Source of the DNA: an uncultured Candidatus Saccharibacteria bacterium | GTDB taxonomy: Bacteria; Patescibacteriota; Minisyncoccia; Phycocordibacterales; PALSA-1337 | NCBI GenBank assembly: GCA_964629235.1 | Contig: CAZVQB010000002.1 | Span: 4,339 to 68,338 of the forward strand | DNA length: 64,000 nt | Direction: 5' to 3' | Shown: piece after piece, positions 27,464-60,064 of the stretch | Layout: every line of letters begins with the position of its first letter | Numbering within the stretch: the first letter of the stretch is position 1 | Position numbers and translations under genes: made by a program | The notes under the pieces: generated by a model | Databases searched by the model: none | What the model was told of the DNA's origin: nothing | The model's input: only the letters and a program-made list of their open reading frames with translations

Positions 27464-28411
27464 CTATTGAAATTTCTTTAATTTATTGGCTATAAATATA
27501 TCAGTATCTCTTCTAGATTCATAAGTCATACCTCCAGTATGTGGAGCTATAATTACATTTGGATTTTTTCTTGCAAACTTTACTAGTGGATGATTCTTGC
27601 AACTATTTTTTGTAAATAAAATCTCACCATCAAGAACGTCAGCTGCATATCCAGCAATCTTTTTCTGTTTTATTACAGTCATCAAATCACCTTCATGAAC
27701 GATCTTACCTCTTGAAGTATTTATTAAATAAGCATTTTTTTTCATAAGACTCATAGTCTTTTTATTGAAAAGGAATTCTGTTTCTGGATTCAAATGTATG
27801 TGTATAGAAATAAAATCACTTTTCTTTAAAAGATCGTTAAAACCAACCTTTTTCCAATTTAGATTTGATGATTCGACTTTTGGATCAGTAAATATAACTT
27901 TCATACCCAAGGCTTCGCCGTATATAGCCATCCACCTTCCGAGTCTTCCAAGACCAACTATTCCTAAAGTTTGACCGTTCAATGAGTGTCCTTTGAACTT
28001 TTCTCTATTCCATTCCCCTTTTAAAACAGACTGGACTGAACTTGGAATATGCCTTGAAGAAGATATGAGTAATCCCAAAGCTAGTTCAGCGGTACCAGTA
28101 ATAGTATTTAAGAAATCATCTTCACCTTTTAGACTAAGAACTTTTACACCTTTTTCTTCAGCGTATTTTATATCAATATGATCCAATCCTGTAGTTGCTG
28201 TAACAAGAAATTTAAGATTTTTTGCTTTTGACAAAACTTCTTTATTAAAATTTAGTCCCAAACCACAGACCACTACATCGTATTTTTCTATTTTTTTTGA
28301 TAGTTCTTGATTTGTAGGTATAACATAATCAACCTTACCTAAAGTATTTAAGATTTTCTTTGCCTCCGGATCAAAATCCTTTCCGATTGTATTTAGTATT
28401 CTGTATGCCAT
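27464..28411 (-). CDS. D-isomer-specific 2-hydroxyacid dehydrogenase family, NAD-binding
   Basis: The 315-aa ORF has a GxGxxG Rossmann motif (GIVGLGRLGRWMA) and the catalytic-type motifs NTSRG and HTGG. Confidence 0.8.
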   Translation of the reverse strand: MAYRILNTIGKDFDPEAKKILNTLGKVDYVIPTNQELSKKIEKYDVVVCGLGLNFNKEVLSKAKNLKFLVTATTGLDHIDIKYAEEKGVKVLSLKGEDDFLNTITGTAELALGLLISSSRHIPSSVQSVLKGEWNREKFKGHSLNGQTLGIVGLGRLGRWMAIYGEALGMKVIFTDPKVESSNLNWKKVGFNDLLKKSDFISIHIHLNPETEFLFNKKTMSLMKKNAYLINTSRGKIVHEGDLMTVIKQKKIAGYAADVLDGEILFTKNSCKNHPLVKFARKNPNVIIAPHTGGMTYESRRDTDIFIANKLKKFQ

Positions 28412-28425: not shown

Positions 28426-30306
28426 CTAAAACTTAAATCCTTTTTTCTTTAATTCCTTCAGCATATATTCTGCTATAATCCAATCGAGTGGATAATCAAT
28501 ATCTACCGATCTATCCTTAGGTACAATATATCCTGCGACCTTATCTCCATAAAGCTTATTTTCTTTCATAATTAAATCCCTTCTCATAGAGTATATTGCT
28601 GCACTTCTCTTATACGCTACAGGCAGATCTTGTCTTCTTGTACCCTCTACTTCTGGAACTGAATATGCACTAATGAAATCTCCTTCGAGTTTTTTAATTT
28701 TAATTGGATTCACATTACTTGGAACTTCAACTATTGATACAGCACTATCTGCTTTTGTATCTATAAGTTTTTGAATTGTTCCATCGATATCATCTATAGT
28801 TCTAAATGGTGAAGTTGGTTGAAGTATAACTACATAATCGATAGTAATATTATTTTTCTTTTCATAAAAATCAATTGCATGTTGCATTACCGGAAGATGT
28901 GGAGTTCCATCTTGAGCCAATTCTTTTGGTCTCATAAAAGGTACATCTGCTCCGTACTTCTTACATACATCAGCAATTTCTTTGTCATCTGTTGAAACAA
29001 TAAGATGATTTATCAATTTGCTCTTCTTTGCAGCATCGATTGTATAAGCAATAAGAGGTTTATTGCCAAGTTTCTTTATATTCTTACCCGGAATGCCTTT
29101 TGATCCTCCGCGAGCGGTTATAACACCAAGGACATTTGGAGTTCTATATTCCCTATCAACATGTTCTTCTGTAAGTGGTTCGAATTTCTTAATATCTTTT
29201 ATTATTTTTTTATCCAAAATATCATGAAAAAAATTTGAAAAAATTCCATTTAGATGAAGTCTTGGTCTCATAGCATAGACCATATCACTGGTGATTATAG
29301 TTCCAGCTTTAATATCTCTTGATGCAACAAGTGTTTTATTGAAATAAGGTCTAAACTTATTTTGTGCACCTTCCAATTCTTTTTCCTTTTGACCATAGAA
29401 AATATTTGTATCTATTTTCTTATATTCATTTTTCTTAATACCAGAGACTAGTTGTTTCATTTCTTCTGGAGTAACTGAAGCTTTATGATCTGAACCCCAA
29501 AGACCTCGATCTAGAGAAAAATGTTTTTCTATAACCTGTGCACCCATTTTTACTGCAGCTAAAGGAATAGTATTGTCTCCAACTGAATGATCAGAAAAAC
29601 CAATGATTGCATGAGGATATTTTTCTTTAAAATATTCTATAGTAGAAAGATTAAATGCTTCTGGAGGACATGGATATTCACTAACGCAATATAGAATAAT
29701 AATTGGTGACCCACGCTTTGTAATATAGTTGACAACGTCATCCAATTCCTTGTGACTAACCATTCCTGTTGAAATGATTATTGGTTTTTGCGTTTTCGTT
29801 AAAAAATCCAAAAGAACATGATCCTGAACATCTCCAGAACCTACTTTCCAAAAAGGTACATCTAGATTTTCAAGTTTAACCGCTGCCATTCTAGACATCG
29901 GAGTTGAGAAGAATATAATTCCTTTTTTTTCTGAATATCTTTTTATTTCTTTGAAAAATTCTATAGGTGCTTCTTCTGTATTTCTTTTAACCCAAGAATA
30001 TCTATCACTACCTTTAAAGTGCGGAGAAACGACATTTATATTTGCTTGTTCATCTTCAACCTCATGAGTTTGAAACTTCACAGCATGTGCACCTGCTTTT
30101 ACTGCTTCATCAATAAGCTTTTTTGCATTCTTAATATAGACTTTTAGAGGTTGAGATTCTTGTGTTTGTATAAAATTCTTACCGATTTCAGCAATAACAA
30201 AAACTTTATCCTTTGATATGATTTTAGAGATAGCGTGAGGCTTCACTATTTTTGAATTTTTATTCTTGCCGGCTTTATAGGATTTAACAGGCTTTTTTAT
30301 TTTCAT
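28426..30306 (-). CDS. Bifunctional nonulosonic (sialic-acid-like) acid synthase NeuB domain fused to CMP-nonulosonate cytidylyltransferase NeuA domain
   Basis: The N-terminal ~360 aa match NeuB (VIAEIGKNF, TIM barrel, C-terminal SAF-like segment). The C-terminal ~230 aa match acylneuraminate cytidylyltransferase (VLGVITARGGSKGIPGKNIKKLGNKPLIAYTIDAA). Confidence 0.8.
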   Translation of the reverse strand: MKIKKPVKSYKAGKNKNSKIVKPHAISKIISKDKVFVIAEIGKNFIQTQESQPLKVYIKNAKKLIDEAVKAGAHAVKFQTHEVEDEQANINVVSPHFKGSDRYSWVKRNTEEAPIEFFKEIKRYSEKKGIIFFSTPMSRMAAVKLENLDVPFWKVGSGDVQDHVLLDFLTKTQKPIIISTGMVSHKELDDVVNYITKRGSPIIILYCVSEYPCPPEAFNLSTIEYFKEKYPHAIIGFSDHSVGDNTIPLAAVKMGAQVIEKHFSLDRGLWGSDHKASVTPEEMKQLVSGIKKNEYKKIDTNIFYGQKEKELEGAQNKFRPYFNKTLVASRDIKAGTIITSDMVYAMRPRLHLNGIFSNFFHDILDKKIIKDIKKFEPLTEEHVDREYRTPNVLGVITARGGSKGIPGKNIKKLGNKPLIAYTIDAAKKSKLINHLIVSTDDKEIADVCKKYGADVPFMRPKELAQDGTPHLPVMQHAIDFYEKKNNITIDYVVILQPTSPFRTIDDIDGTIQKLIDTKADSAVSIVEVPSNVNPIKIKKLEGDFISAYSVPEVEGTRRQDLPVAYKRSAAIYSMRRDLIMKENKLYGDKVAGYIVPKDRSVDIDYPLDWIIAEYMLKELKKKGFKF

Positions 30307-31348: not shown

Positions 31349-31360
31349 AACTATTTTTCG

Positions 31361-31390
31361 AATCCTCATGGAAACATGAGGATTTTTTAT
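31361..31390 (+). terminator. Rho-independent terminator of the DMT transporter gene, overlapping the neuC stop codon
   Basis: AATCCTCATG-GAAA-CATGAGGATT followed by TTTTTAT. Confidence 0.6.
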
Positions 31391-32544
31391 TCAACAAATG
31401 TCTTTTGAGTATAAAGAGGTACAGTAGCAATAACTTCTGCGATCTTTTTACTTGTACTTTCTGAAAAATATAATTTTGATGATTCGTATCTACCCTTTTT
31501 GACTTGTTTCTGTATAGCCTTTTTTATTTCTTCTACATTATGATCAACAGTAATAACATTTTCTGCACTCAATCTCTTGAATTGTCTATTTCCAATATTT
31601 ACAACAGGTAAACCCATAAAAGAAGACTCTTTTATTCCAGCTGAAGAATTCCCTATCAAACATAGACTGTTGTTTAACAACCAAATAAAATCCTTTGGAC
31701 CCATATAACGCATAAAGCGTATTTTATGTCCTTTAACTTCATCCTTAAATATTCTAAGTTCATGTGATATATCTTCTGCACCCGCATCAGCATTTGGCCA
31801 AAACCAGAGTGTTGGAATCTTTAGACTATGTACTGCATCAAGTATCTTTTTTGTATTTTCATGTACATGTTTAACATCCATAATATCAGGATGATACATT
31901 ACCATCAGATATCCTTTACTGAGATCGAACATCGCTCCACTTCCAGTAGTATTTAAATCAAATTTATGTTTTTTGCTTGATAATTTCTTTACCACTTCAA
32001 TTTCTGGACTACCGAAATTAAAAACGTGTGAGTCTTTTTCTCCTAGTCTCAATACTCTTTTCCTTGCTGGCTCATTTGTTGTAAAGTGAATATGAGAAAG
32101 CTTCGTGATAGCGTGTCTTACACTTTCATCTATTGATCCAGATACATCACCACCTTCTATATGTGCTATTGGAATAGATAAATATGCAGCAGCAATTGTA
32201 GCTGACAGAACTTCAAATCTATCACCTCTTACCACAACAACATCAGGTTTAATCTGATTAAAAAGTGTAGTAAATTCTATTATTCCAAGTCCTGTCGTTT
32301 TTGCTTTTACGATTGTGTCATTACCTTCTAGATTAAAATGAAGTTCATATAACTTATCATATCCATCATCAGTTAATAACTTTTTAATATCTGCAAGTTT
32401 AGATGTATAGCGAGACAATAGAGCTGTACCGCCAACTACTATATGTAGGTCAATATCTTTTCTTTTCTTTAGTTCTTCTAGAATAAGAAAGTTACGACTG
32501 TAGTGTATAAAACTTGTAATAACGAAACAGACTTTTCTCTTCAT
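31387..32544 (-). CDS. neuC: UDP-N-acetylglucosamine 2-epimerase (NeuC/WecB family; hydrolysing type likely)
   Basis: The 385-aa ORF starts MKRKVCFVITSF and carries VVRGDRFEVLSATIAAAYLSIPIAHIEGGDVSG, the epimerase_2 signature. Confidence 0.8.
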   Translation of the reverse strand: MKRKVCFVITSFIHYSRNFLILEELKKRKDIDLHIVVGGTALLSRYTSKLADIKKLLTDDGYDKLYELHFNLEGNDTIVKAKTTGLGIIEFTTLFNQIKPDVVVVRGDRFEVLSATIAAAYLSIPIAHIEGGDVSGSIDESVRHAITKLSHIHFTTNEPARKRVLRLGEKDSHVFNFGSPEIEVVKKLSSKKHKFDLNTTGSGAMFDLSKGYLMVMYHPDIMDVKHVHENTKKILDAVHSLKIPTLWFWPNADAGAEDISHELRIFKDEVKGHKIRFMRYMGPKDFIWLLNNSLCLIGNSSAGIKESSFMGLPVVNIGNRQFKRLSAENVITVDHNVEEIKKAIQKQVKKGRYESSKLYFSESTSKKIAEVIATVPLYTQKTFVE

Positions 32545-32547
32545 AGT

Positions 32548-33531
32548 CTAGCTAATATGCAGTATTTTTCGCAAAAATGCAAATCTATTTGAGTATCTTA
32601 TTAGATATACTATTTTAACCAAAATTGGTGATAGAGACATGCGCGCTTTTAGATAAATACTCTTCGGGATTTCTATATCTTTTGATAATGTATCCTTCCT
32701 TGCAACCAAACGTATATGATGAGTATTCAATCCATCCTGTTTTTGCTTTTTAATTTGTTCTTGATTCTTTCCTTCATCAACATCCATATAAACAATTACG
32801 AAACCTGCTTTTTTACACATTAAAGAAAGTGTTTCTGGTGTAAACATATATACATGGTCGATCTGCACTCCTGATTGAAGTTTTCCCATTCTTCTTACTT
32901 GATGTCTCCAATTTTTTACCGCAAGGAAAATATGTCCTCCTGGTTCTAAAGCTTCGTGTGACCAATTTAGAAATTTCATTGGATCCAAAAGATGATTTAA
33001 ACTTTGAACACATAGAATATTTTTTACTTTATTCTTAATGTCCATATTCACATCCTCAAAAAGTCCACGAATCGTCTTTACGCCTTTTGACTCAGCATAA
33101 CCCGATTCTTCAAGCGAAGGTTCAATACCTAGTAGTTCTAGATTTTTCCTAGACTCTCTCATACCAAAAAGTATTCCACCCGTACTTGAACCAACATCAA
33201 TAGTAAGTCCATCTTTTACATATTTACCCATATAACCGACTATAGCCTTGCCGAATCTTCTAGCATTCTCAAAATTCTTCTCTAAATCTGAATTGTATTC
33301 ACGATTCTTTATACTTGCCCTGTCTTGTCTATAAAAAGACATATAGTATTCATCATAGTCTTTAGCGGTCATACGTGGATTAATAAAAACCAAACTACAC
33401 TTCTTACACATTACTGTATTTGCTTTAAGATTGTTTACACTTCTTTTAACAATTACCTTAAAATCATTTCCACCACAAAGATTACATGCTATGTATTCAA
33501 GATTCTTTTTATTGTAGTCAAATCCTTCCAT
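32548..33531 (-). CDS. Class I SAM-dependent methyltransferase with N-terminal Cys4 zinc-ribbon (copy 1)
   Basis: CNLCGG...CKKCSLVFINPR zinc ribbon, then the SAM motif IDVGSSTGG. Paralog of 36216-37163. Confidence 0.7.
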   Translation of the reverse strand: MEGFDYNKKNLEYIACNLCGGNDFKVIVKRSVNNLKANTVMCKKCSLVFINPRMTAKDYDEYYMSFYRQDRASIKNREYNSDLEKNFENARRFGKAIVGYMGKYVKDGLTIDVGSSTGGILFGMRESRKNLELLGIEPSLEESGYAESKGVKTIRGLFEDVNMDIKNKVKNILCVQSLNHLLDPMKFLNWSHEALEPGGHIFLAVKNWRHQVRRMGKLQSGVQIDHVYMFTPETLSLMCKKAGFVIVYMDVDEGKNQEQIKKQKQDGLNTHHIRLVARKDTLSKDIEIPKSIYLKARMSLSPILVKIVYLIRYSNRFAFLRKILHIS

Positions 33532-33532
33532 T

Positions 33533-34891
33533 TTATTTAATTAAATTAATTATATAATCTGCAATTCTTTTCCCTGATAGACCGTCTGTAAATGTTGTCT
33601 GTTCTTTTACCAGGTTCTCTCTTTCTTTACTCTTTACTGATGGATCATCTAAATATTTATTTATTGAATCTAATAACTCTTGTCTATTATTTACCAAATC
33701 AACAGCATTAGTCTTTAATACATTCTTATAATGCCAAGTTCTGTAGTATTGTACAGGAGATTTTAACAATTTTGGAATTTTATTTATTTCAAAATTTATA
33801 TTTATTACTGGTTTGTCAAAAATACTTGCATCAATACTAATACTTGAAGCATAACAAACCAAGACAGACATATGATAAAGAGTATCCTGTAAATGATCTA
33901 GATCTGCTTTATTCATATCCCAATCAACACCTCTTTTTGTACCAAAACGTATACCGGGTTTATCACATTTTAGATCTGGTCTCTTTGATATTTCTTCTTC
34001 ATCAACAAAATCATTTGGTTGGAATCTTACCAACAATTCACATTCATATTTCAATTCTTTTGAGTAAATCATTTCTTGTAATAGGTCGATTATATCCCAA
34101 TCAGCAGAACTAAATGCTCTACCCATCGGAGCATATACTATCAATTTTTTATCACTAGGAATTTTTATTTTATTAAAGAATTCTTCTCTTAGAATAGGTT
34201 TCCTTGTATAGAAAAAATCATATTGTGGTAAACCACTAACAAAAATATCTTGTTCATTCATTTCATTAAAATCCATCATCTCTCCTTTGACGATATCGTT
34301 AAAAACTATAGCTTTATCAGGCAATAATCTTAAAATACATCTTGAAGTAACCTTATCCCAAGAGTTTATATAACCTATTGTTTTTATTTTTCTCTTTTTT
34401 GCTTCTCTTAATAGATTGATTTCAATTTCTTCAAATAGATGGGCGGTAAAAACAAGATCTGGTGAATATTTATCAAAATACTCACTATATGTATTGTCTT
34501 TTATTAAAAGAAAATCCAAATATCTCACAATTTTTCTTATCAAAGACCAAGCAAGAATATAGTTCGATACTTTACCAAAATAGTATCCAAAAAATCTCCC
34601 TTCATAATCACTGACCATTTTTCGTTTTAAATTTGTAGTTTCAGTTCTAAGTAAAGTGAACTTCATCTTTGAGAAAAAACTATCGAACATTGGTATGGAT
34701 TTTTGTTCAACAAATTCAAATACTATTCTTGGATCATTGAATTCATTTTTATAATAATCTACTTTTTGTTGCGATTTTGTAAAAAGAACAATTCTTATAT
34801 CTTTATTAAAAAGAAGATTCTCTAAAATAGGTGTTCGTAGAATATTCTTTACTTCTACACCTTCAAAAATTGTTATAAATATTGTTTTCAT
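33533..34891 (-). CDS. Putative TagB/TagF-like (CDP-glycerol glycerophosphotransferase family-like) polymer transferase, paralog 1
   Basis: The 452-aa ORF has a C-terminal half with the R-x-(Q/H)-P and YASSISIDASIFDKPVININ pattern, similar to the TagF HP / TDYSS motifs. One of three paralogs. Confidence 0.4.
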   Translation of the reverse strand: MKTIFITIFEGVEVKNILRTPILENLLFNKDIRIVLFTKSQQKVDYYKNEFNDPRIVFEFVEQKSIPMFDSFFSKMKFTLLRTETTNLKRKMVSDYEGRFFGYYFGKVSNYILAWSLIRKIVRYLDFLLIKDNTYSEYFDKYSPDLVFTAHLFEEIEINLLREAKKRKIKTIGYINSWDKVTSRCILRLLPDKAIVFNDIVKGEMMDFNEMNEQDIFVSGLPQYDFFYTRKPILREEFFNKIKIPSDKKLIVYAPMGRAFSSADWDIIDLLQEMIYSKELKYECELLVRFQPNDFVDEEEISKRPDLKCDKPGIRFGTKRGVDWDMNKADLDHLQDTLYHMSVLVCYASSISIDASIFDKPVININFEINKIPKLLKSPVQYYRTWHYKNVLKTNAVDLVNNRQELLDSINKYLDDPSVKSKERENLVKEQTTFTDGLSGKRIADYIINLIK

Positions 34892-36216
34892 TTATTTATC
34901 AAATCTAATATTGCATTGAAAAGCCTTTCGGTATTTTTACCATCCAAAAATCCTGCCTCCATCTCAGCTAATTTCTTTCTTTTATCTTTATCTAGACTAG
35001 GATTTTTAACATACTCATCTAAATAATCTTTGAATTGCCGCATAGATTCAGCAAGCTTCACTCCCCCACTTTCTATTACTGGAATAAAATTATTATAATC
35101 GTAATATCTTCTTATACTATCGAAATATTCTCTCTTCTCATATCCATCAAAACCAAAAAGAATTATAGGCTTATTCATATATGCTGAATCAAGAACAAAA
35201 GTTGATGGTGAACTGATAACTAACTCTGACCAGAATAGGGTTTCAGCCAAATGCACATCGTCATTTTTATCGATTTCTGTAATCTTGATATTATCGAACT
35301 TTGGTTTTGCTCTATCATATATAACCTTTAGATTTGGAAATTTTGGATTATTCTCTAATTCTCTAACATAATCTCCTGGTGGAAGCCTGACTAGAAGTTG
35401 ATAATCTTTTGGTAAAGTCTTATCCAAAATATCTACAATATCTCTATCAACTGTATTATTTCTCAAATATCGATCACCTAACGGTATGAAGAGTGCTAAC
35501 TTTTTATCCTGATCACCACCTATTTTTTCTATAAATTCTTTTCTATTTGTAAACACATTTTTCTTATAATCATCATAGTGTGGAATTCCAATAACAGATA
35601 TCATTGATTCTCTTATTTCTTGAAGACATATCGCTTCATCTTTAATGATATTATTCCATACTAACAATTTATTAGGTATAACTCTTATGAGACCTTTTGA
35701 AGTAAGGTTGTCCCAAGAACGAACCATTCCTGCAGTTTTAATATTCGAAAAAATACCCTCATTCAATATTGCAATATCAAGTTCACTTTGGATATCGGTA
35801 GAAAATATGCAATCAGGTTTATACTGATCAAATAATTTCTCAAATCTTTTATTTTTATAACTTACTCTTTCTAGAAATCTTACGAATTTATGACCTATTT
35901 TATTTGATAATAAATAAGTTAAATACATTCCGCTACCTTTCATTTCTGTCTTTCTTTTTATATAAAGCGTTTTCGTATTTAATGCTGTTAGTGAAAGATA
36001 CTTTAATAGATTTTCTCTCTTGGTATTTTTAAATTCGAATCCTTCAACAATAACGTCATCTCTCTCAAAATTTTCTTTAAAAAAACTTTCTTTATTTTTT
36101 GGAGCAATTATTACAACTTTTATATTATTTTTAACAAGTACATCCAGGATTCCAGATGAAAGAATATTTCTTGATATGAGTGGATGAAAACTAGTTATAA
36201 AAATTGTCTTTTTCAT
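34888..36216 (-). CDS. Putative TagB/TagF-like polymer transferase, paralog 2
   Basis: The 442-aa ORF starts MKKTIFITSF and carries LVRLPPGDY...ISSPSTFVLDSAYMNKPIILF. Confidence 0.4.
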   Translation of the reverse strand: MKKTIFITSFHPLISRNILSSGILDVLVKNNIKVVIIAPKNKESFFKENFERDDVIVEGFEFKNTKRENLLKYLSLTALNTKTLYIKRKTEMKGSGMYLTYLLSNKIGHKFVRFLERVSYKNKRFEKLFDQYKPDCIFSTDIQSELDIAILNEGIFSNIKTAGMVRSWDNLTSKGLIRVIPNKLLVWNNIIKDEAICLQEIRESMISVIGIPHYDDYKKNVFTNRKEFIEKIGGDQDKKLALFIPLGDRYLRNNTVDRDIVDILDKTLPKDYQLLVRLPPGDYVRELENNPKFPNLKVIYDRAKPKFDNIKITEIDKNDDVHLAETLFWSELVISSPSTFVLDSAYMNKPIILFGFDGYEKREYFDSIRRYYDYNNFIPVIESGGVKLAESMRQFKDYLDEYVKNPSLDKDKRKKLAEMEAGFLDGKNTERLFNAILDLINK

Positions 36217-37163
36217 TATCTTTTAAGGAATTGCTGCAGACGTACAGTAAGTAAATATCTTAAATAAATATAATATTTGTTTATTGATAATAAAGTAAAA
36301 ATATAATTACCTTTACCTATTGTTAAATCCTTAAAAGGAGTTTTATTCAATCTTTTGGCCACAATGCGAATATGCACTCTTGGAATTCCTTGCATGATCT
36401 TCTTCTTTGTATATTCATCAGCTTCAAAGAAAAGGATTTCAAATCCAGCTGACGTTATAAAATCTCTCAGAACTTCAGGCGTATACATATAGACATGGTC
36501 AATCTTTACACTATTTTCATACTTTCCTGCTTTTTGTAATTGTTGCCTGAAATTCATAACTTCAACAACAAGAAGTCCATCATCAAAAAGAGATTCATGT
36601 GCCCATTTGAAAAAGTATCTCGGATCCAAATAGTGATTAAGAGCTTGAGTACTAACTATAACTGCAAATTTTTCTTTTTTATTATGATCTTCGATTAAAG
36701 CATGATAAGTCTTTATTCCTTGAGAATTCGCATAATCCGATTCTACCTTTGACGGCTCAAGACCTATTACTTCTCTATTTAAATATACTTTCATTCCTTT
36801 CAAAACACCTCCGACTCCAGAGCCAACTTCCATTATATTTCCTTTTACTTTTAGATATGGTGATATAAGCTCGCCCAAAAATTTGCCATGTCCTATAGTC
36901 GATTCAAATAATCTCTTGCAATCAAAATCTGAACCTGCCTCGCCATTGTTTATAGTCTTTTGTCTGTATTCTTCTTCATAATAGAATTTATAACCAGACT
37001 TCGTCATTCTCGGATTTATATATATAAGACCACACTTTTTACAAATAACAGAGTTTAAAGCTAGACCATCTGTACCCTTTTTTGACAGGATTTTATAATT
37101 GTTACTTAAACAGAAACTGCAAACAATATTCTCCTTTTCAATTGTATTGTATGGGAAAGACAT
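36216..37163 (-). CDS. Class I SAM-dependent methyltransferase with N-terminal Cys4 zinc-ribbon (copy 2)
   Basis: CSFCLS...CKKCGLIYINPR zinc ribbon, then MEVGSGVGG. Paralog of 32548-33531. Confidence 0.7.
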   Translation of the reverse strand: MSFPYNTIEKENIVCSFCLSNNYKILSKKGTDGLALNSVICKKCGLIYINPRMTKSGYKFYYEEEYRQKTINNGEAGSDFDCKRLFESTIGHGKFLGELISPYLKVKGNIMEVGSGVGGVLKGMKVYLNREVIGLEPSKVESDYANSQGIKTYHALIEDHNKKEKFAVIVSTQALNHYLDPRYFFKWAHESLFDDGLLVVEVMNFRQQLQKAGKYENSVKIDHVYMYTPEVLRDFITSAGFEILFFEADEYTKKKIMQGIPRVHIRIVAKRLNKTPFKDLTIGKGNYIFTLLSINKYYIYLRYLLTVRLQQFLKR

Positions 37164-37224
37164 TTTATGATAAACAAGTATATCACAACAAAATATTGCT
37201 TCAATTTTAAAAATTAATAAAAGA

Positions 37225-38619
37225 CTAGATAATTTTTTCTAAAAAATCTACATTTCTCTTATAAGACAAACCGTCTCTAAAGAAAATAAAATCATTGAAT
37301 ACTTTTTCTTGTTGCTTCTTTTTTACATCGTGATTTTTCAAACAAATATTAACATGTTCAACGATATTATCGAAACTCTTTGAGAGGAAAACTGCATCAG
37401 CATCAACAATTGGCTTATAGTGACGGAAATTGTATGCTCTATGATACTTTTCTGGATAATCTATATTTACAACTGGTTTTCCAAAGATAAAAGATTCGAG
37501 GGTCATTGTTGAAACGTAGTTTATAACTACATCAGAATATTTTAGAGTTAACTTTAGATTCAAAATATCATCCTCATGTATTTCAATTCTCGTACCCATT
37601 TCTTGTGAAAGCAATTTGCCCGGATATTCAACATGTAGATTTGGTATTTTACTATCAATATATACTTTAAATTTATCAAACTCCTCTTTTGGATGCATTC
37701 GCACTAGAATATTTGGTTTACCATCAAATTTGCCTTGATCACGAGCTTTCAATAGTTCTCCAAGAAGAATATCTTCATCAGGATAATTCCCTTTTGTAAC
37801 TGTAGTTATAAGTATAGTTTTTTCTTTTGGATTTAATCCTTTACTCAAAAGGAAAGTTTCTCTTGAGAGTTCACTTGGATTATTTACAGAATAAGAATCA
37901 AAACGCATTGTACCTGAGACAAATACATTGTTTTCTGAATATCCATATTCTTTTACTGCAGTATTTTTTATTATTTTATTCCAAACTATTAGATAATCTG
38001 GTCTTCTAAAATGCACGCCTCCATTATGAAGATTGTCCCAACTAAAATTTATCGCTGCAGTCTTTATACCAAATTTCTTTGCATATATTATTGCTTCAGC
38101 ATCAGGATGACTGAATCCTGGAGTTGCTGTTAGAAACATTACTGGTTTGTATTCTTTAATCTTTTCTTCAAGGGCTTTTGATCTTGGTATAAAAATTTTC
38201 TCTAGTTTAGTAAATAAATCATTTGTCCAAAAAGATGCAGGGGCAATATAAGAAAAATACTTTAAAAATCTTCTTCTCCAATCTTTCATACCCTTTTCTT
38301 TATTCCTAACTACCACCGGTTCAAAATCGTATTTACGGATTATTGAATACCTAAAATATTTACCAAATAGATTCCAAAATCCTGGATTTTGCAATTTCCA
38401 AGGAACATAAGTCACATTTTCTGATTTAAAATATGGCTTATTGTCTTCACAAAAAGCTTGTGGAGACATGAATACCACTACTTTGTATTTTGTTGATAAA
38501 TACTTTATATAATCTGTACGTAAAAAATCCGATGAGTAAACAAAGTTAGAAATAAAAAGAAATACTGTTTTCATAGAAAGGTATTGTAGCATATATGTTA
38601 TAATCGTTATTATTACCAC
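37225..38619 (-). CDS. Putative TagB/TagF-like polymer transferase, paralog 3
   Basis: The 464-aa ORF carries ILVRMHPKE...INYVSTMTLESFIFGKPVVNI. Confidence 0.4.
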   Translation of the reverse strand: MVIITIITYMLQYLSMKTVFLFISNFVYSSDFLRTDYIKYLSTKYKVVVFMSPQAFCEDNKPYFKSENVTYVPWKLQNPGFWNLFGKYFRYSIIRKYDFEPVVVRNKEKGMKDWRRRFLKYFSYIAPASFWTNDLFTKLEKIFIPRSKALEEKIKEYKPVMFLTATPGFSHPDAEAIIYAKKFGIKTAAINFSWDNLHNGGVHFRRPDYLIVWNKIIKNTAVKEYGYSENNVFVSGTMRFDSYSVNNPSELSRETFLLSKGLNPKEKTILITTVTKGNYPDEDILLGELLKARDQGKFDGKPNILVRMHPKEEFDKFKVYIDSKIPNLHVEYPGKLLSQEMGTRIEIHEDDILNLKLTLKYSDVVINYVSTMTLESFIFGKPVVNIDYPEKYHRAYNFRHYKPIVDADAVFLSKSFDNIVEHVNICLKNHDVKKKQQEKVFNDFIFFRDGLSYKRNVDFLEKII

Positions 38620-39738
38620 ATGAAAAAACCTATTCTGCTACTCTGGATAATTTCATCATGGATTCTCTATCCCTTTTTTAGTCTATCTTCAAAAATTAAG
38701 AGCAAAAAACTAGGTGAGAAAAAGAGAGTGCTTGTATTGCCACAACTTTCTAGAATTGGAGATATCGTCTGTTCTACTGGTGTATTTTATAATATTAAAA
38801 AATCATATCCTGATAGTTATGTATCTGTATTAGTATCGAAAAAAGCATTTGGAATTATAAAAAACAACAAAAGAATTGATAATTTTATTATTTATGAAGA
38901 CTATTCATTTTTTGGTTTAATAAATAAAATTAAATCAGAAAATTTCAACTATTCAATAAACCTTACAGCAACATCCATAAATACTTGTTTAACTCTTTGG
39001 AGTTGTATAAATCATAGAATCAAGACTGTAGTAGAAACTCCTCCAATTACAGAAAGACTTACTGATTGTATGTCGAATCATCGATTACTATACAGGAATC
39101 ATACATATTTACCACTTCACCATATAAAGTTGTTGAATTTCATTGGAATAAATAATCCTGAGGATAAAAAAGAAATATACCTAAGTGGTACAGCGGAAAT
39201 AAAGGCAAATGATTTTGTTAAAAACTTTGGAGAAAATAAAAAAATAATAGGAATAAGCATAACTGCAGGAAATAAAATAAAGGAACTTGGTGATGAAAGA
39301 TTTGAAAAATTAATCAATAAACTTTTAGAAAATCAGGATAACATAGTTTGCTGTATAGGATCTAAAAATGACTCAGAAAGGATTGATAAAATAATATCCA
39401 GCGTGAATAATCCTCGTTTCATTAAAGCAACTGATTTTAATTTGGAAGAATTACCATCTCTTATGAAAACATTCTCGCTTTATATTGCGGTTGATACTGG
39501 TCCTATTTATATTGCGCATGCCCTAGGAATACCTCTGATAGACATAATTGGTCCAGTAGATCCGAATGAACAACCACCAAAAGACAGTAAGAGTATACAA
39601 ATTCTTCCTAGAGGAGATATAAAACCTAGTTCATTTGTATTTAAGAAACGTGGAACTAAAGATGAAATTATTTCAGCAATACGAAATACTGATATAAATG
39701 ATATTTATAAAGCCGCAGTAATACTATTGAGTAAGTAG
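38620..39738 (+). CDS. Glycosyltransferase family 9 (LPS heptosyltransferase-like)
   Basis: The C-terminal motif DTGPIYIAHALGIPLIDIIGPVDP matches the GT9 D-S/T-G-P-x-H-L-A...G-P-T signature. Confidence 0.7.
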   Translation: MKKPILLLWIISSWILYPFFSLSSKIKSKKLGEKKRVLVLPQLSRIGDIVCSTGVFYNIKKSYPDSYVSVLVSKKAFGIIKNNKRIDNFIIYEDYSFFGLINKIKSENFNYSINLTATSINTCLTLWSCINHRIKTVVETPPITERLTDCMSNHRLLYRNHTYLPLHHIKLLNFIGINNPEDKKEIYLSGTAEIKANDFVKNFGENKKIIGISITAGNKIKELGDERFEKLINKLLENQDNIVCCIGSKNDSERIDKIISSVNNPRFIKATDFNLEELPSLMKTFSLYIAVDTGPIYIAHALGIPLIDIIGPVDPNEQPPKDSKSIQILPRGDIKPSSFVFKKRGTKDEIISAIRNTDINDIYKAAVILLSK

Positions 39739-41112
39739 ACCGTATCTAACAAACCAACCTCGTACTATTGATATACCCTTTCGAATAATAATTTTATCTT
39801 CTTCTTTAAAACCAAAAATGATCTTGAAATCGAAATGGAATCCTTTGTCCTGATTTTTCGTATATATATAGTTTGCAATAACCATAATTAAAGGCACAAG
39901 TACGAATTCAAGAGCCAAACCCCAAAGACCAATGAAAGGTAGTGTTGAGACAATAATTCCAAGTGCAAGACTATTTCTAAATAAATGTAAAAAGAAAAGG
40001 TACTTTTGCTTTCTTAATGCTATGAGATAGTTGCCTATTATTATTCCCGCCGCAAATATTGGTAAATTTAAAAGCATAAAATAGAATAGCGGTATTGATT
40101 GTTCGTATTTCGAGAAGAAAGTATATATAATCGGTGGAACTGCAATAATTGCTGATATAACCACCAATATACTTCCAAGTACAAAATATTTTATTCCATA
40201 AGAAAACATTTTAACTGATAAATGTTTATCTTTTATCCAAAGTGGAACAAGTGATTGCATGGTATTACTTGGCATTAAATCTTGAATTGTAGTAACAATA
40301 GTCTCAGCAATAGAATATATAGCTACCGCTTCAGTATTTATAAAGAATTTAACTAACCAAGGCTTAACTCTAAAAGTTATTTTATTTATAAATTGTCGAA
40401 GCACATCCCATGTTCCGTATGTTACGAAAATATTCCACAACAATACATTTGGAGTGACTGCTATATGACTCCATTTGAAATAAACTTTAAAGAATTGATA
40501 TGAAACCGCCAAAACACTGAGTGATGAAGCGATTATTATAGATAGTATCAATTGTTTCAAACCGAGATTGCCTTGTAAGAAATAATAAATAAGTACAATA
40601 GATTGAATAGCTTTATTTATAGTATATCTCTGAGCAACTACTGAAAACTTCAATCGGACTAGACATAGTAATCGTATAAGGACGAACAGCCCTTCACTCA
40701 ATATCACAAAAGAAATCATTCTCATATCTTTTACGAAATCGATATCGTAAGATTTAAAAATATAAACCGAACCAAAGAATATTATTGCCCAAGCAGTGAA
40801 AGTTATAACTATTCTAACCAAAGAATATTCTAAGAAAATTCTCTTTGCATCACTAAGTCTATTGTCAGCGATTGCTCGAGACATTTCATTTGAAATAATA
40901 GCTGAACCAAGATTCAAAACATCAGATGGTACACCTGAAAAAGAAAGTAGGAGTTGGAATACACCGTACTGATACAAAGTAAGTGATGTAATAGTTAAGA
41001 ATGTATTCAATAGACCTATTACTTTTGTTACAAGATTCCAAAAGGTTGAAACGGCTTCCCCTTTTAAGAAAATAGCCATAAATGACGGCTTTTTTTGAGT
41101 GTTTGTATCCAT
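39724..41112 (-). CDS. Wzx-like oligosaccharide/polysaccharide flippase (MOP superfamily)
   Basis: The 462-aa ORF has 12-14 TM helices and overall Polysacc_synt organisation. Confidence 0.55.
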   Translation of the reverse strand: MDTNTQKKPSFMAIFLKGEAVSTFWNLVTKVIGLLNTFLTITSLTLYQYGVFQLLLSFSGVPSDVLNLGSAIISNEMSRAIADNRLSDAKRIFLEYSLVRIVITFTAWAIIFFGSVYIFKSYDIDFVKDMRMISFVILSEGLFVLIRLLCLVRLKFSVVAQRYTINKAIQSIVLIYYFLQGNLGLKQLILSIIIASSLSVLAVSYQFFKVYFKWSHIAVTPNVLLWNIFVTYGTWDVLRQFINKITFRVKPWLVKFFINTEAVAIYSIAETIVTTIQDLMPSNTMQSLVPLWIKDKHLSVKMFSYGIKYFVLGSILVVISAIIAVPPIIYTFFSKYEQSIPLFYFMLLNLPIFAAGIIIGNYLIALRKQKYLFFLHLFRNSLALGIIVSTLPFIGLWGLALEFVLVPLIMVIANYIYTKNQDKGFHFDFKIIFGFKEEDKIIIRKGISIVRGWFVRYGLLTQ

Positions 41113-41171
41113 AACTTAATATACTATCATAAATTGTCATAACCATATATAATCTTAAAAAATACAATTTT

Positions 41172-42560
41172 ATGAAAAATATATCCAAAAAGGCATTCAT
41201 TATCATATTTTTAATAATCGTATCCGTAAATTTCCTTTATTCTATATCATACAAGATAAAACCAGCTGTAGATGCTGAAGCATACGATGAAATTGCTACA
41301 AATATAGTTGAGCATGAACAATATAGATCAAGCTTCAATGTACCTATAGAACTTGATGGTTCAATAACAAGAATCGGTCCTGGGTATGAATTGTTCTTAG
41401 CAACAAATTATTTATTCTTTGGTAAACATCTTTGGATTATTTGGTTATTCCAAGCAATACTCTATGCTTTGACTATCGTAATGCTTGGTTTGATGAGTCT
41501 AAAGTTATTCCCTGTAATAAATCAAAATACAAAGATCCTTTATGGTTCAATGATTGTTTTTGGCTTACTCATCGATATAATTCAATTGAATGCAATGATA
41601 ATGACTGAATCCCTTTTCCTATTTCTTTTAACTCTTTCTTTCTTTATTTGGTCACAGATCTACAATCACGATCCGAAAATAAAATATGGATTATGGATCA
41701 TTCTAGGATTTGTCTTAGGATTATTAACCCTTACTCGTCCTACTGGATTATTAGTATTTATACTATTAAGTGGAGCAACAATATACAGAAAAAAGCTTGG
41801 TTCAATACTTGCTATATGTCTTATTACTATTCCATTTATCTTAATCCAAGTTCCTTGGTTTATAAGAAATTATCATGTTTATAATCAATTTATTTTTCAC
41901 TCTAGCGCTGATGGTCTGAATTTCTTAAGTGGCAACTATCCTGGCAATCATGGAGAATTTACTTCTGATTTTCCTTTTTATAAAGAATTAAAAGAGAAAT
42001 ACCCATCTCCAGTAGAATTAAATAATGAAGCAAAAAAATGGTATAAAGATTTTGTATTACATCACCCTATTCAAGCTACAAAAATACTAATTGAAAAAGC
42101 TTTAATATTCTTTTCTCTTACCAAGACTTCTGGTTTTTGGTTCCATTATTTTGGAAAGACTGATCAGATACTTACAATCCTCATATCAATACTACAAAAC
42201 TTTATAATACTTGGAAGTATTATATTGTATGGGACAATGGTTGTTAAAAGATGGATAAATAAACAATTCCTTCTACCAGACATATTTCTTGCTTCAACTT
42301 TTGTAGTATTGACCGTAACTCCAATAATTTCAGTTATAGCAAATAGACATAGACTTCCACTAGTTATAATGTCTCTGCCTTTATTCGCCTATGTTGCATA
42401 TATATTAAAAAATAACTTCAGAAAAATGAAATGGGAAATTGCTATTACGATTCTTATCCTTATCGCAAGTACTAGTCTAGATCTATTCTTACAATTCGAT
42501 AAATTCAAATCAAAAATACATTCAGTAAATAAAAGTCCAGTGGAAACAGTAACTAAATAA
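41172..42560 (+). CDS. GT-C fold membrane glycosyltransferase (ArnT/PMT-like, family 39/83-like)
   Basis: Polytopic membrane protein. The first extracytoplasmic loop holds the acidic motif AVDAEAYDEIA, similar to the GT-C DE/DxD loop-1 motif. Confidence 0.5.
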   Translation: MKNISKKAFIIIFLIIVSVNFLYSISYKIKPAVDAEAYDEIATNIVEHEQYRSSFNVPIELDGSITRIGPGYELFLATNYLFFGKHLWIIWLFQAILYALTIVMLGLMSLKLFPVINQNTKILYGSMIVFGLLIDIIQLNAMIMTESLFLFLLTLSFFIWSQIYNHDPKIKYGLWIILGFVLGLLTLTRPTGLLVFILLSGATIYRKKLGSILAICLITIPFILIQVPWFIRNYHVYNQFIFHSSADGLNFLSGNYPGNHGEFTSDFPFYKELKEKYPSPVELNNEAKKWYKDFVLHHPIQATKILIEKALIFFSLTKTSGFWFHYFGKTDQILTILISILQNFIILGSIILYGTMVVKRWINKQFLLPDIFLASTFVVLTVTPIISVIANRHRLPLVIMSLPLFAYVAYILKNNFRKMKWEIAITILILIASTSLDLFLQFDKFKSKIHSVNKSPVETVTK

Positions 42561-42563
42561 TTT

Positions 42564-44222
42564 ATGATTAAGAAAATAATCAAACATCCATTAAGTTATA
42601 TACTACTTTTTGCTTTTCTAATTCGTATAGTAATGATCAAATATGGTTTACCATTCTGGTTATACAATGATGAACCACCTTTTGTACTTACAACATTGAA
42701 GATGTTTCAATTAAAGACGCTTTTACCAGTTTTACATGAAGCTGATTTCAAGCCATTCATGTATTACCCTCCTTATATTAGTTATTTATATATTCCCTTC
42801 TTTTTATTTTCTATAGCACTATCATGGATTGGCTTTGATGGAAACCTCAGTGAATTACAGAATGTGTTAGCTAGCGATCCTTCGATATTTTTCCTAACAG
42901 CGAGAGTAATAATGATTTTTATTAGTACATTAACCATTTATTTAATATACAAAATAACTCAATCATTAACACAAAGTAAAACTGCATCGCTTTATTCTGC
43001 AATCCTTTCTTCAACAAGTTTAATGTTTATAAGCCTTTCAATCACAGGCAAACACTGGGTACCAATACTTTTCTTTTATACACTTTGTCTTTTTATACTT
43101 ACACGTCCGAATTGGTCTATTAAAAAAAGATATATATTTTCAGTAATTACTGTAGGTATTGGAACTGGCATAAGTACAATAGTAATTCTTTTCTCTGTAG
43201 TGATTTTCCTTTGGTATATCACGTACGATAAAGTAAGTATAAAAGAAAGTTTGACCAGTCTATTTATGTACAAACTTGGTTTTATTGTGGCTATTTTATC
43301 TTTTATTCCAGTTCTTCTTTACCCTGCAAGTCTTGGTTTCGTACCAGACACAACATTACATGGTGGCAAGACTCTTTTGGGCTTTATAACTAGTCCTTTT
43401 GTTTTTCCATTCCCTTTCATCGCTACTGAACCAGTTTTAGTACTACTCAGTCTTATTGGTTTATATCTCGGTCTTAAAAAATATAAACCGTTCTATGTGA
43501 CGTCTATTATTTTTACAGTGTTTTATAGCATGATATTCTATGTATTTTTCAGATTTGAATACCGTTTCCTTTTACCTCTCGTATTATTCTTAACGATTGG
43601 ATCTGCAATAGGAATAAATGAAATCAGGAATAAATATCCAAACAAATATTCCAAAATTTTTATTTATTTGATTCTTCTAATTCCAATATTATTCTCTTTA
43701 AGACTTAGTTATCTTGGTTATACAAATGATTCAAGAATAAAAGCAAAAGAATGGTTGAATGCTAATGCAGAAGCTCATGACAAGGTTATTGTCTATGCGA
43801 ATCTCATGAGAATAGCAAATAATAAAAGTGGGATACTGGAACAACAGTTCATCGATGCGAAATCATTAAGAACAAATGATAAAAATATGTTGAGTATTCG
43901 AGATGGTTTGATAAAAGAAAAAACATTCCATGCTTTGAATCTATACACAGTTGAGAACGACAATTTCTACAAAATGATTGATGTTTATGTAAAAAAGAAT
44001 GGTTATAAATATCTGATATTTAGTAAAAGAGATTTCTTAGATAAACCTGAACAATTTGAGTATGTTAAAAATCTTACAAAAGATGCTAAACTTATAGTAA
44101 GTTATGGTAATAATGAAAGTAACTATTCCCTTTCAAAAACTGAGATCGGACCTAGTTTATTACCTTTCTTTAGAATAAATGAATTCGGACCGGAGATAGA
44201 AATATATAAATTGAATGACTAA
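42564..44222 (+). CDS. GT-C fold membrane glycosyltransferase (ArnT/PMT-like) with a C-terminal periplasmic domain
   Basis: Polytopic membrane protein. Loop 1 reads WLYNDEPPF (DE motif), and a ~200-aa soluble domain is C-terminal. Confidence 0.5.
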   Translation: MIKKIIKHPLSYILLFAFLIRIVMIKYGLPFWLYNDEPPFVLTTLKMFQLKTLLPVLHEADFKPFMYYPPYISYLYIPFFLFSIALSWIGFDGNLSELQNVLASDPSIFFLTARVIMIFISTLTIYLIYKITQSLTQSKTASLYSAILSSTSLMFISLSITGKHWVPILFFYTLCLFILTRPNWSIKKRYIFSVITVGIGTGISTIVILFSVVIFLWYITYDKVSIKESLTSLFMYKLGFIVAILSFIPVLLYPASLGFVPDTTLHGGKTLLGFITSPFVFPFPFIATEPVLVLLSLIGLYLGLKKYKPFYVTSIIFTVFYSMIFYVFFRFEYRFLLPLVLFLTIGSAIGINEIRNKYPNKYSKIFIYLILLIPILFSLRLSYLGYTNDSRIKAKEWLNANAEAHDKVIVYANLMRIANNKSGILEQQFIDAKSLRTNDKNMLSIRDGLIKEKTFHALNLYTVENDNFYKMIDVYVKKNGYKYLIFSKRDFLDKPEQFEYVKNLTKDAKLIVSYGNNESNYSLSKTEIGPSLLPFFRINEFGPEIEIYKLND

Positions 44223-44986
44223 TGAAAATCACGATAATAATACCAACATACAATGAAGGTGAAGCAATCGGTAACTTACTCGATGCAGTTATTGCTGAAA
44301 CAAAAGAAATAAAGAATCATATATTTTCTATTCTTATCGTTGATGGGAATTCAAAAGACAATACTCAAGAGAATGTAAAAAACAAATCAAATAAATACAA
44401 CAATATAAAACTAATAGTTGAAAAAAATAAAAGTGGTCTTGGGAACGCATATTTAGAAGGAATGAATTATGCAATAAACAATCTTGGTGCGGATGCTTTC
44501 ATGGAATTTGATGGTGATTTCCAACACAATCCAAAAGATATAAAGAAGTTGGTGGAAAAACTAGATCAGGGATATGAATATATAATCGGATCAAGATATA
44601 TAAAAGGAGGAACTATCCCTAGGGAATGGCCTTGGTATAGAAAAGCTATTAGTTCATTCGGAAATATTGTAATAAGTGTAGGATTAAGACTTGGAATAAA
44701 TGACGCAACTTCAGGATTCAAACTATCGACGGTTGATAAATTTAAAGACTCGATGCCATTAAAACAAGGACAATTGATCTCTCTTCGACATGCATATAAG
44801 ATTCATTTTCTTTATAATATGATAAAAGCTGGAGCAAAAACAGTAGAGGTACCTATAGAATTCTTAAATCGGAATAAAGGAATATCAAAAAGTACCTTCG
44901 AAGATATAATAGAATCACTAAGAGTTGTTTTCGTTTTGATTATTAAGGGTGGGAATAATCGCATTGTTTTTAAAAATAAACCTTGA
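44222..44986 (+). CDS. GT2 polyprenyl-phosphate sugar synthase (Dpm1/ArnC/GtrB-like)
   Basis: ITIIIPTYNEGEAIGNLL, DGNSKDNT, DGDFQHNPKDI and the C-terminal amphipathic/TM segment are typical of Dol-P/Und-P-sugar synthases. Confidence 0.8.
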   Translation: MKITIIIPTYNEGEAIGNLLDAVIAETKEIKNHIFSILIVDGNSKDNTQENVKNKSNKYNNIKLIVEKNKSGLGNAYLEGMNYAINNLGADAFMEFDGDFQHNPKDIKKLVEKLDQGYEYIIGSRYIKGGTIPREWPWYRKAISSFGNIVISVGLRLGINDATSGFKLSTVDKFKDSMPLKQGQLISLRHAYKIHFLYNMIKAGAKTVEVPIEFLNRNKGISKSTFEDIIESLRVVFVLIIKGGNNRIVFKNKP

Positions 44987-46625: not shown

Positions 46626-46629
46626 ATAT

Positions 46630-48455: not shown

Positions 48456-48501
48456 ATATTTATGCTTGTCACCTTAATAATATTGTCATACTATATCAAA
48501 C

Positions 48502-53679: not shown

Positions 53680-53683
53680 TTTA

Positions 53684-58975: not shown

Positions 58976-58985
58976 TGTAAAAATA

Positions 58986-60044: not shown

Positions 60045-60064
60045 ATGATTTAATTATGAAAAAA

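Follow-up and report, generated by a model that had tools for sequence, protein, structure and literature searches.

A conserved operon of Patescibacteria encoding three TagF-fold, probably CMP-nonulosonate-dependent glycosyltransferases and two TcaB9-like methyltransferases

What do three TagF-like transferases and two zinc-ribbon methyltransferases, encoded side by side in a patescibacterial genome, make, and how did they come to share one locus? The question is raised by a 64,000-nucleotide (nt) stretch from an uncultured Candidatus Saccharibacteria bacterium (contig CAZVQB010000002.1, positions 4,339 to 68,338), the whole of which is called the window here. Its positions 32548-38619 hold five intact, consecutive minus-strand open reading frames (ORFs), which a preliminary description, made from the sequence, had taken for a segmentally duplicated cassette that diversifies a decorated polymer. 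With modest confidence we favour another reading, namely a conserved operon of Patescibacteria that encodes three TagF-fold glycosyltransferases, probably dependent on cytidine monophosphate (CMP)-activated nonulosonic acids (NulOs), and two glycan-tailoring methyltransferases related to TcaB9. In the direction of transcription the genes run T3-MT2-T2-T1-MT1-neuC, where T stands for TagF-fold transferase and MT for zinc-ribbon methyltransferase:

37225-38574, minus strand: T3, a TagF-fold (glycosyltransferase fold B, GT-B) transferase and the most divergent T paralogue (NF046086 84.7 bits; TIGR04396 46.8 bits; PF04464 16.1 bits, sub-threshold)
36216-37163, minus strand: MT2, a class I S-adenosylmethionine (SAM) methyltransferase with a four-cysteine (Cys4) zinc ribbon; an accessory gene, absent from locus L008 and from a 648-kb contig of the Joint Genome Institute (JGI)
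34888-36216, minus strand: T2, a TagF-fold transferase with R-L-P-P at the site of TagF His584 (PF04464 31.7 bits)
33533-34891, minus strand: T1, a TagF-fold transferase with R-F-Q-P at the site of TagF His584 (PF04464 41 bits; structure model with a predicted local distance difference test score, pLDDT, of 93.5)
32548-33531, minus strand: MT1, a Cys4 zinc-ribbon SAM methyltransferase of truncated TcaB9/KijD1-like architecture (H180, D225 and H226 invariant; pLDDT 93.5)
31387-32544, minus strand: NeuC, a hydrolysing 2-epimerase of uridine diphosphate N-acetylglucosamine (UDP-GlcNAc), the last gene of the operon (TIGR03568 346.5 bits against a cut-off of 235.9)
31360-31385, no strand assigned: a G+C-rich hairpin in the gap where neuC and EamA converge, probably a bidirectional terminator
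28426-30306, minus strand: a NeuB-NeuA fusion of 626 amino acids (NulO synthase plus CMP-sugar synthetase), the probable donor source for T1-T3

The five genes are real, conserved and functional. Ratios of non-synonymous to synonymous substitution (dN/dS) between the window and its closest relative, locus L004, are 0.02-0.09 for all five, on which ground spurious ORFs were rejected, and all five exact proteins were found again in several independent public assemblies. (L numbers denote genome loci retrieved with a T profile; 80 loci have a T1 orthologue, 41 of them with full 10-kb flanks.) The mechanical ORF of T3 reaches a GTG at 38619; an alternative ATG at 38574 gives a protein of 449 residues that begins MKTVFLF, and since homologues have 448-455 residues and a 449-residue form is on record, the ATG is most likely the true start. 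Successive genes from T3 to neuC are separated by 61 nt, a 1-nt overlap (MT2/T2), a 4-nt overlap (T2/T1), 1 nt and 3 nt. Given this tight or overlapping spacing and the terminal hairpin, the six genes look like one operon, set within a 30-kb surface-glycan locus of a genome of Parcubacteria/Paceibacteria type. A promoter scan of the locus was uninformative, giving fewer sites than shuffled sequences. An ORF of 89 residues antisense within T1 (33844-34113, plus strand) lies wholly inside a strongly conserved gene and is most likely spurious.

T1 belongs to a large family (696 matches at E values up to 1e-5; 161 genome loci), and its orthologues are widespread across Patescibacteria. The TagB/TagF-type resemblance pointed out in the preliminary description is borne out. 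T1 (41.0 bits) and T2 (31.7 bits) pass the gathering threshold of PF04464 (Glyphos_transf, 22.1 bits), which T3 (16.1 bits) fails. The AlphaFold (AF2) model of T1 (pLDDT 93.5, predicted template modelling score 0.90) has two Rossmann-like halves, and a Foldseek search of the PDB matched it to generic GT-B enzymes, with TagF (3l7j/3l7k) at rank 23 (E 5e-11) showing the highest identity. Real tarL and tarF sequences were fetched from staphylococcal plasmids for comparison, while TagF 352-714 and its H444N and H584A variants were read from PDB alignments. Against TagF/TarF/TarL the T family scored 96.9% (local) and 98.3% (global) in hhalign, T1 193-448 corresponding to TagF 481-714. The T proteins are therefore GT-B-fold homologues of TagF, TarF and TarL (PF04464; PDB 3L7I, 8VA1) over their C-terminal two-thirds. 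Their N-terminal domain is not alignable with that of TagF, no significant local hhalign alignment being found there, and at about 450 residues they are without the extra N-terminal region of TagF (a chain of 729 residues). TarL was the only PDB sequence match of the T profile; a single-sequence PDB search with T1 found nothing, and a sub-profile of T1 residues 135-300 gave chance matches only. No chain of the sialyltransferase families GT38, GT42, GT52 or GT80 was among the PDB sequence matches of T1 or the T profile (E up to 10) or among the top 50 Foldseek matches of T1.

Three motifs are common to the T proteins and TagF/TarF/TarL: G-x-P-x-x-D (TagF GYPRND, T1 GLPQYD), R-x-(H) (TagF LLR582-M-H584, T1 LVR289-F-Q291) and SS...D....K/R-P. 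The C-terminal YxSS...KP motif of the preliminary description is real and is the 'DYSSVMFD..KRPQ.F.AYD' motif of TagF; in the alignment TagF DYSSVMFDYGILKRPQ is paired with T1 YASSISIDASIFDKPV. All 163 T-family ORFs have D179 (within S-W-D) and G220; R289 is shared by 160 of them and P292 by 155. Global hhalign pairs the invariant S-W-D179 with TagF W477-D478, whereas a strand-order argument pairs it with W443-H444, the catalytic base (Q-T-W-H-G). Position 291 aligns with H584, the second active-site histidine of TagF as identified from the H584A entry 3l7m, and is Pro in 68 ORFs, Gln in 51 and His in 30, the His being essentially confined to the T3 clade. The 'HP-like' motif ascribed to all three transferases is thus an actual H-P in T3 (R-x-H-P, RMHPKE) but Q-P in T1 and P-P in T2. 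In other words, the sialyltransferase-type H-P motif is found in the T3 clade only, while the Arg two residues upstream and the Pro are near-invariant in the family.

The best NCBIfam model for all three proteins is NF046086, the BFO_1060 family of glycosyltransferases (T1 52.2, T2 44.5 and T3 84.7 bits; curated cut-off 200 bits); T3 also matches TIGR04396 (46.8 bits). All 59 of the 59 T-family members tested match NF046086 (best E 6.6e-24), compared with eight for TarF and three for TarL. The family is named after Tannerella forsythia Tanf_01245 and TFUB4_00887, TagB-like proteins of about 445 residues whose genes adjoin those for CMP-pseudaminic acid (Pse) or CMP-legionaminic acid (Leg), and when these genes are deleted the O-glycan of T. 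forsythia lacks its terminal Pse or Leg derivative (PMC5420450). Sialyltransferase-type H-P and D/E-D/E-G motifs have been described for these transferases, and strain UB4 has a methyltransferase gene located between its Leg genes and that for the Leg transferase (PMC5420450). In the same species, loss of the NulO is accompanied by loss of a methyl group from the acceptor sugar. The T proteins resemble the Tannerella enzymes in size, in their TagB/GT-B-type domain, in having CMP-NulO genes next door and, as in UB4, an adjacent methyltransferase. They differ in that their scores are sub-cut-off (44-85 against 200 bits), so that they are not members of the family, that each locus has three deep paralogues, and that the His of H-P is confined to the T3 clade. 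The lineages also differ (Patescibacteria versus Bacteroidota for Tannerella), and the pathway at our locus looks NeuC/NeuB/NeuA-type rather than Pse- or Leg-type.

Gene neighbourhoods bear on the donor. In the window the T genes stand directly upstream of neuC, with the NeuB-NeuA fusion and a 2-hydroxyacid dehydrogenase 1 kb further on, followed by a Wzy_C protein with tetratricopeptide repeats (TPR). Homologues of neuA, neuB or neuC occur within 10 kb of a T gene in 59 of the 80 loci, and in 34 of the 41 with full flanks. Pfam scans of 50 of the 57 window ORFs of at least 120 residues revealed neither genes for cytidine diphosphate (CDP)-alditols nor a Pse- or Leg-specific dehydratase or aminotransferase, and a BLAST search of all window ORFs of at least 90 residues with a TagD query found no TagD-like gene. 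Across the loci a TagD-like cytidylyltransferase turned up in 2 of 80, a figure that is approximate. As a control, the real tarL on a staphylococcal plasmid directly adjoins tarI/tarJ, whereas the T loci are linked to neu genes and almost never have CDP-alditol genes nearby. Because of the neuC/neuB/neuA linkage, the BFO_1060 similarity, the near-absence of CDP-alditol genes nearby and the restriction of His584 to the T3 clade, the likeliest donor appears to be a CMP-NulO, not CDP-glycerol. The NeuB domain matches the structures of Neisseria NeuB, SpsE and PseI about equally, so that synthases of N-acetylneuraminic acid (Neu5Ac), Leg and Pse are not told apart, and NeuA falls into CTP_transf_3, a family that includes KdsB as well. 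As NeuC, NeuB and NeuA are the only such proteins present, the simplest guess would be a Neu5Ac-like sugar. NeuB and NeuA are fused in the window and in L004, and are separate genes in L007, L008, L010 and L012.

Alternatively, the T proteins could be genuine teichoic-acid-type alditol-phosphate transferases like TagB, TarF or TarL, using a CDP-alditol made elsewhere in the genome to build a chain resembling poly(glycerol phosphate) or poly(ribitol phosphate), while the neu genes supply only a cap or linkage sugar. The scores of T1 and T2 above the PF04464 threshold, the hhalign match to TagF/TarF/TarL with its GxPxxD, R-x-H and SS...KP motifs aligned, and TarL as sole PDB sequence match of the T profile would all fit, and three paralogues would suit a division of labour between primase, extender and polymerase. 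There is also a precedent against assuming NulO transfer, as Bacillus subtilis SpsB is TagB-like and encoded next to the CMP-legionaminic acid pathway, yet is not needed for Leg transfer (PMC7439481). SpsB (TagB/SpsB family, COG1887), likened to the T proteins by description only, shares with them the position of a TagB-like protein beside a NulO pathway, and JGI annotates some T homologues as 'TagB/SpsB family'; neu linkage and TagB-likeness are therefore not proof of NulO transfer. On the other side stand the lack of a TagD/TarI/TarJ-like gene in the window, the rarity of TagD-like genes across the loci, the fact that T1 has Gln and T2 has Pro at the position of TagF His584, which contacts the donor, the BFO_1060 model, which matches all members and does so better than the TarF and TarL models, and the persistent association with neuC, neuA and neuB. 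On balance we regard teichoic-acid-type transfer as unlikely. The label 'CDP-glycerol glycerophosphotransferase' is probably a wrong annotation for the T genes. As for the polymer with methyl or phospho-sugar decorations proposed in the preliminary description, a methyl-decorated surface glycan is plausible, but phospho-polymer chemistry seems less likely than NulO transfer in view of the neu linkage, the BFO_1060 similarity and the missing CDP-alditol genes.

The methyltransferases carry the Cys4 zinc ribbon and INPR motif that had been noticed in the sequence: C16, C19, C42, C45 and INPRM are invariant in 51 homologues, as are the SAM motif DVGSSTGG, N179-H180, D225-H226 and H272. The AlphaFold model of MT1 consists of a three-stranded zinc ribbon (residues 24-50), a Rossmann domain, a small beta/alpha extension and three C-terminal helices (about 292-324) that are rich in hydrophobic and basic residues and amphipathic-looking by eye. 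There is a match to PF13489 in Pfam, and the top 18 Foldseek matches in the PDB are all sugar 3-C-methyltransferases (MtmC, KijD1 and TcaB9; E 6e-15 to 2e-11). The family profile also finds KijD1 (2e-7) and TcaB9 (4e-6) by sequence, nearly colinear. The ribbon is not unusual, as had been supposed, since it is the standard N-terminal domain of TcaB9/KijD1/MtmC-type enzymes. In the hidden Markov model alignment (SEQRES numbering offset by 2), H180, Q223, D225 and H226 fall on TcaB9 H181, Y222, E224 and H225, which are the positions altered by mutation in PDB entries 4e2w to 4e2z. With these TylCIII-type nucleoside diphosphate (NDP)-sugar 3-C-methyltransferases the MTs share the Cys4 zinc domain, the Rossmann SAM domain and the His/acid-His site. 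They differ in being about 90 residues shorter (327 versus 416 residues for the TcaB9 type), with the amphipathic-looking helices in place of the C-terminal nucleotide-sugar domain and Gln in place of TcaB9 Y222; none of the 51 members matches PF08421 (N-terminal) or PF08484 (C-terminal, NDP-sugar-binding) at E up to 0.1. The MTs are related to the TcaB9/KijD1/MtmC sugar methyltransferases and keep the His/Asp-His site, but are shortened. The proteins of this operon fall short of both nearest curated families, in membership score or in defining residues. The label 'ubiquinone methylase' on MT2 is certainly uninformative.

Such a site raises the possibility that the MTs are true C-methyltransferases acting on a keto-sugar or alpha-keto-acid intermediate of the NulO pathway, in which case the T enzymes would transfer a C-methyl-branched sugar. 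The exclusive structural match to sugar 3-C-methyltransferases and the alignment of TcaB9 H181/E224/H225 with the invariant H180/D225/H226 are what one would then expect. A His/acid pair is, however, also compatible with O-methylation, the C-terminal NDP-sugar-binding domain is missing throughout the family, and MT2 can drop out while every T and neu gene is retained. Domain fusions point in another direction as well. Among 1.84 billion representatives, 165 MT clusters were found at E up to 1e-30, some of them fusions: metagenomic protein P0439 joins a Wzx flippase, an MT and an SGNH/AlgX-like domain, and P0434 an MT and a PMT_2 domain of the glycosyltransferase fold C (GT-C) type, both being candidates that could be gene-calling artefacts. 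Fusions to flippase, GT-C or SGNH domains set these proteins apart from TcaB9, KijD1 and MtmC and, with the hydrophobic and basic C-terminal tail, point to tailoring of a membrane-bound glycan. We therefore consider C-methylation of a pathway intermediate very unlikely. An MT gene directly abuts a T gene in 20 of the 26 MT-bearing loci, and taken together the fusions, this adjacency and the methyl parallel in T. forsythia favour the view that the MTs work together with the T enzymes, methylating a glycan that is lipid-linked and bound to the membrane.

The remainder of the glycan locus offers further candidates for such a pathway. Upstream of the operon are GT9 and Wzx genes, GT-C-like membrane proteins, GT2/GT4 enzymes and more methyltransferases; the nearest neighbours on the two sides are:

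38620-39738, plus strand: a GT9 (heptosyltransferase-like) glycosyltransferase, divergent from T3 and syntenic in the close clade
39724-41112, minus strand: a Wzx-type flippase (Polysacc_synt in Pfam) of the same glycan locus
27464-28411, minus strand: a D-2-hydroxyacid dehydrogenase (phosphoglycerate-dehydrogenase-like), found alongside neuA/neuB in 31 of the 80 loci
25182-27428, minus strand: a Wzy_C-type membrane protein (resembling O-antigen ligases/O-oligosaccharyltransferases) that carries TPR repeats at its C-terminus; it is conserved downstream of the NulO genes

From this gene set we infer the donor, acceptor, methylation target and order of steps of the CMP-NulO pathway that we prefer. 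T1-T3 would be GT-B enzymes descended from TagB/TagF stock and working like the T. forsythia Pse/Leg transferases, with NeuC and NeuB-NeuA making the CMP-activated, sialic-acid-like sugar that serves as their donor. On the cytoplasmic side of the membrane, each T enzyme may transfer this sugar to a lipid-linked oligosaccharide, differing from the other two in acceptor or linkage, while MT1 and MT2 methylate the growing glycan, MT1 being tightly coupled to T1. Wzx would flip the completed glycan, which the Wzy_C-TPR protein would pass on. The D-2-hydroxyacid dehydrogenase does not belong to any textbook Neu5Ac, Leg or Pse pathway, and the NulO made at the locus may be modified or non-canonical given its presence.

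It could conceivably be a polymer that is made, the T proteins acting as CMP-sugar-dependent polymerases or on Kdo (3-deoxy-D-manno-oct-2-ulosonic acid)-like ulosonic acids other than NulOs, to give an acidic homo- or heteropolymer resembling teichulosonic acid. The linkage and family evidence is the same as for NulO transfer, TagF and TarL are themselves polymerases, three T paralogues are common (32 of the 80 loci) and NeuA shares its family with KdsB. The syntenic GT9 gene fits as well, as known GT9 members act on Kdo or heptose acceptors. The present data suit single transfer and polymerisation alike, but the T proteins are without TagF's extra N-terminal region, and a Wzx flippase accompanied by many other glycosyltransferases suits a block-assembled oligosaccharide. 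We hold polymerisation or the use of Kdo-like sugars to be doubtful. The GT9 protein, of the lipopolysaccharide (LPS) heptosyltransferase family, is syntenic with T3 although this lineage is not expected to make LPS; GT9 and T genes occur together in 17 of the 80 loci.

Several findings weigh against transfer of a CMP-NulO and temper our preference for it. T1-T3, at 44-85 bits, lie far under the 200-bit BFO_1060 cut-off, while T1 and T2 pass the glycerophosphotransferase threshold in Pfam. T1 and T2 also lack the His of the H-P motif known from sialyltransferases and TagF. Foldseek ranks UDP-GlcNAc 2-epimerases and GT4/GT1 enzymes above TagF; it confirms a generic GT-B fold only and cannot separate TagF from other GT-B enzymes. 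In 21 of the 80 loci no neu genes were seen near the T gene, and the NeuB domain of the window scores under every NCBIfam equivalog cut-off, including those for NeuB and PseI. Finally, the conserved TcaB9-like His/Asp-His could mean that the MTs act on a keto-sugar precursor and not on the glycan. A bolder version, which we consider a long shot, is that Patescibacteria possess a lineage-wide branch of TagF-superfamily enzymes which gave up CDP-alditol phosphotransfer for the glycosyl transfer of CMP-nonulosonates, paired with truncated TcaB9-like MTs that install C-methyl branches, so giving new methyl-branched surface sugars. In the re-tooled site the invariant Trp-Asp would then stand where TagF has Trp-His444, and Arg-x-Gln/Pro-Pro where it has Arg-x-His584.

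How, then, did the genes come to stand together? The MTs are paralogous, as are the Ts, which agrees with the preliminary description. In pairwise BLASTP, MT1 and MT2 share 39.6% identity over 313 residues (E 2e-67), T1 and T2 30.0% over 456 residues (E 2e-57), T1 and T3 24.6% (E 9e-31) and T2 and T3 26.2% (E 9e-19); no similarity of MT to T proteins was detected. Similar N-termini (MKTIFIT, MKKTIFIT and MKTVFLF), the alternating gene order and variable gene content between related genomes could be taken to mean that an MT-T cassette was duplicated recently and that recombination between its repeats alters the copy number. However, protein identities are only 25-40%, the longest direct repeat within 32-39 kb is 34 nt at 74%, and DNA-level resemblance among the paralogues amounts to at most 72 nt at 72% or 149 nt at 68%. 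Duplication as an MT-T unit is unlikely because T1 is closest to T2, not T3, and MT2 is absent where all three T genes stay. The order GT9 (divergent)-T3-MT2-T2-T1-MT1-neuC is kept in eight Patescibacteria loci (L004, L005, L006, L007, L010, L011, L012 and L038) at 56-98% protein identity to the window. As each paralogue has its own same-order orthologues and MT2 varies independently of the T genes, the duplications appear to be ancient and of single genes. An identical MT2 protein was found on six contigs from six assemblies or runs, and the surrounding arrangement is the same in all, though only two reach through neuC. A recent, recombining tandem duplication is ruled out by the low protein identity and the lack of a long DNA repeat, which makes this part of the preliminary description extremely improbable; to judge from the comparisons, the locus is an old, stable operon of diverged paralogues. 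A mobile element was likewise rejected, 31-39 kb containing neither repeats nor an integrase. Between the window and L004, T2 (89% amino acid identity) and T1 (92%; window 33533-36216, L004:8676-11359) have diverged more than the flanking genes (95-98% for T3, MT1, MT2, GT9 and NeuB-NeuA), yet with dN/dS < 0.09.

Gene content does vary between related genomes, but through whole tailoring genes and not repeat recombination. MT2 is precisely missing from L008 (8708-8709; compare L007 7762-8712) and from the JGI 648-kb contig, where the T3 stop abuts the T2 start; its absence from otherwise syntenic genomes indicates that one methyl decoration is optional. A 2-kb module encodes a PhyH-type dioxygenase (PF05721, 23.2 bits) and a divergent third zinc-ribbon methyltransferase with 19-23% identity to MT1 and MT2. 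It lies between T3 and MT2 in L004 (5570-7657) and L012 (5338-7625), and between GT9 and T3 in L007 (4321-6378) and L008 (5295-7325). At the corresponding site (37164-37224) the window is without it, the window/L004 junction being a clean indel. The module suggests an extra tailoring step of hydroxylation plus methylation, gained or lost as a unit. Since the differences are clean insertions or deletions of unrelated or distantly related genes, the locus appears to diversify by gain and loss of whole tailoring genes (MT2; PhyH with the third MT). More distant Patescibacteria have one to four T genes and none to two MTs near the T1 orthologue. The named homologues all come from Parcubacteria/Paceibacteria groups (Giovannoni-, Sung-, Harrison-, Taylor-, Niyogi-, Zambryski-, Yanofsky- and Nomurabacteria).

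Transferases for NulOs other than Neu5Ac are poorly known, and for the TagB-like type the evidence is a single genetic study in Tannerella, to which the SpsB result is contrary. The large T family, diversified into paralogues in Patescibacteria, offers many natural variants for working out donor and acceptor specificity. Judging from the operon, the surface of these very small, host-dependent bacteria may be coated with methylated glycans of a sialic-acid-like kind; if the switched TagF branch were real, ultra-small episymbionts would carry an unknown class of methyl-branched, sialic-acid-like surface sugars. In the searchable library we found no literature linking Patescibacteria (the Candidate Phyla Radiation) to NulOs and nothing relevant on PF04464 in connection with NulOs.

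The window is AT-rich, with about 28-35% G+C; the glycan locus at 34000-54000 (28-31%) is below the housekeeping ends (33-37%). A homologue of TraG/VirD4-type coupling proteins (TrwB_AAD_bind, T4SS-DNA_transf; 53684-55507, minus strand) is encoded at the edge of the glycan locus. Type IV pilus genes (57180-62189, minus strand), comprising a pilin with an N_methyl motif, a PilC-like protein and two T2SSE ATPases, lie about 30 kb from the Wzy_C-TPR gene, and a pilin or other surface protein could be the glycan acceptor.

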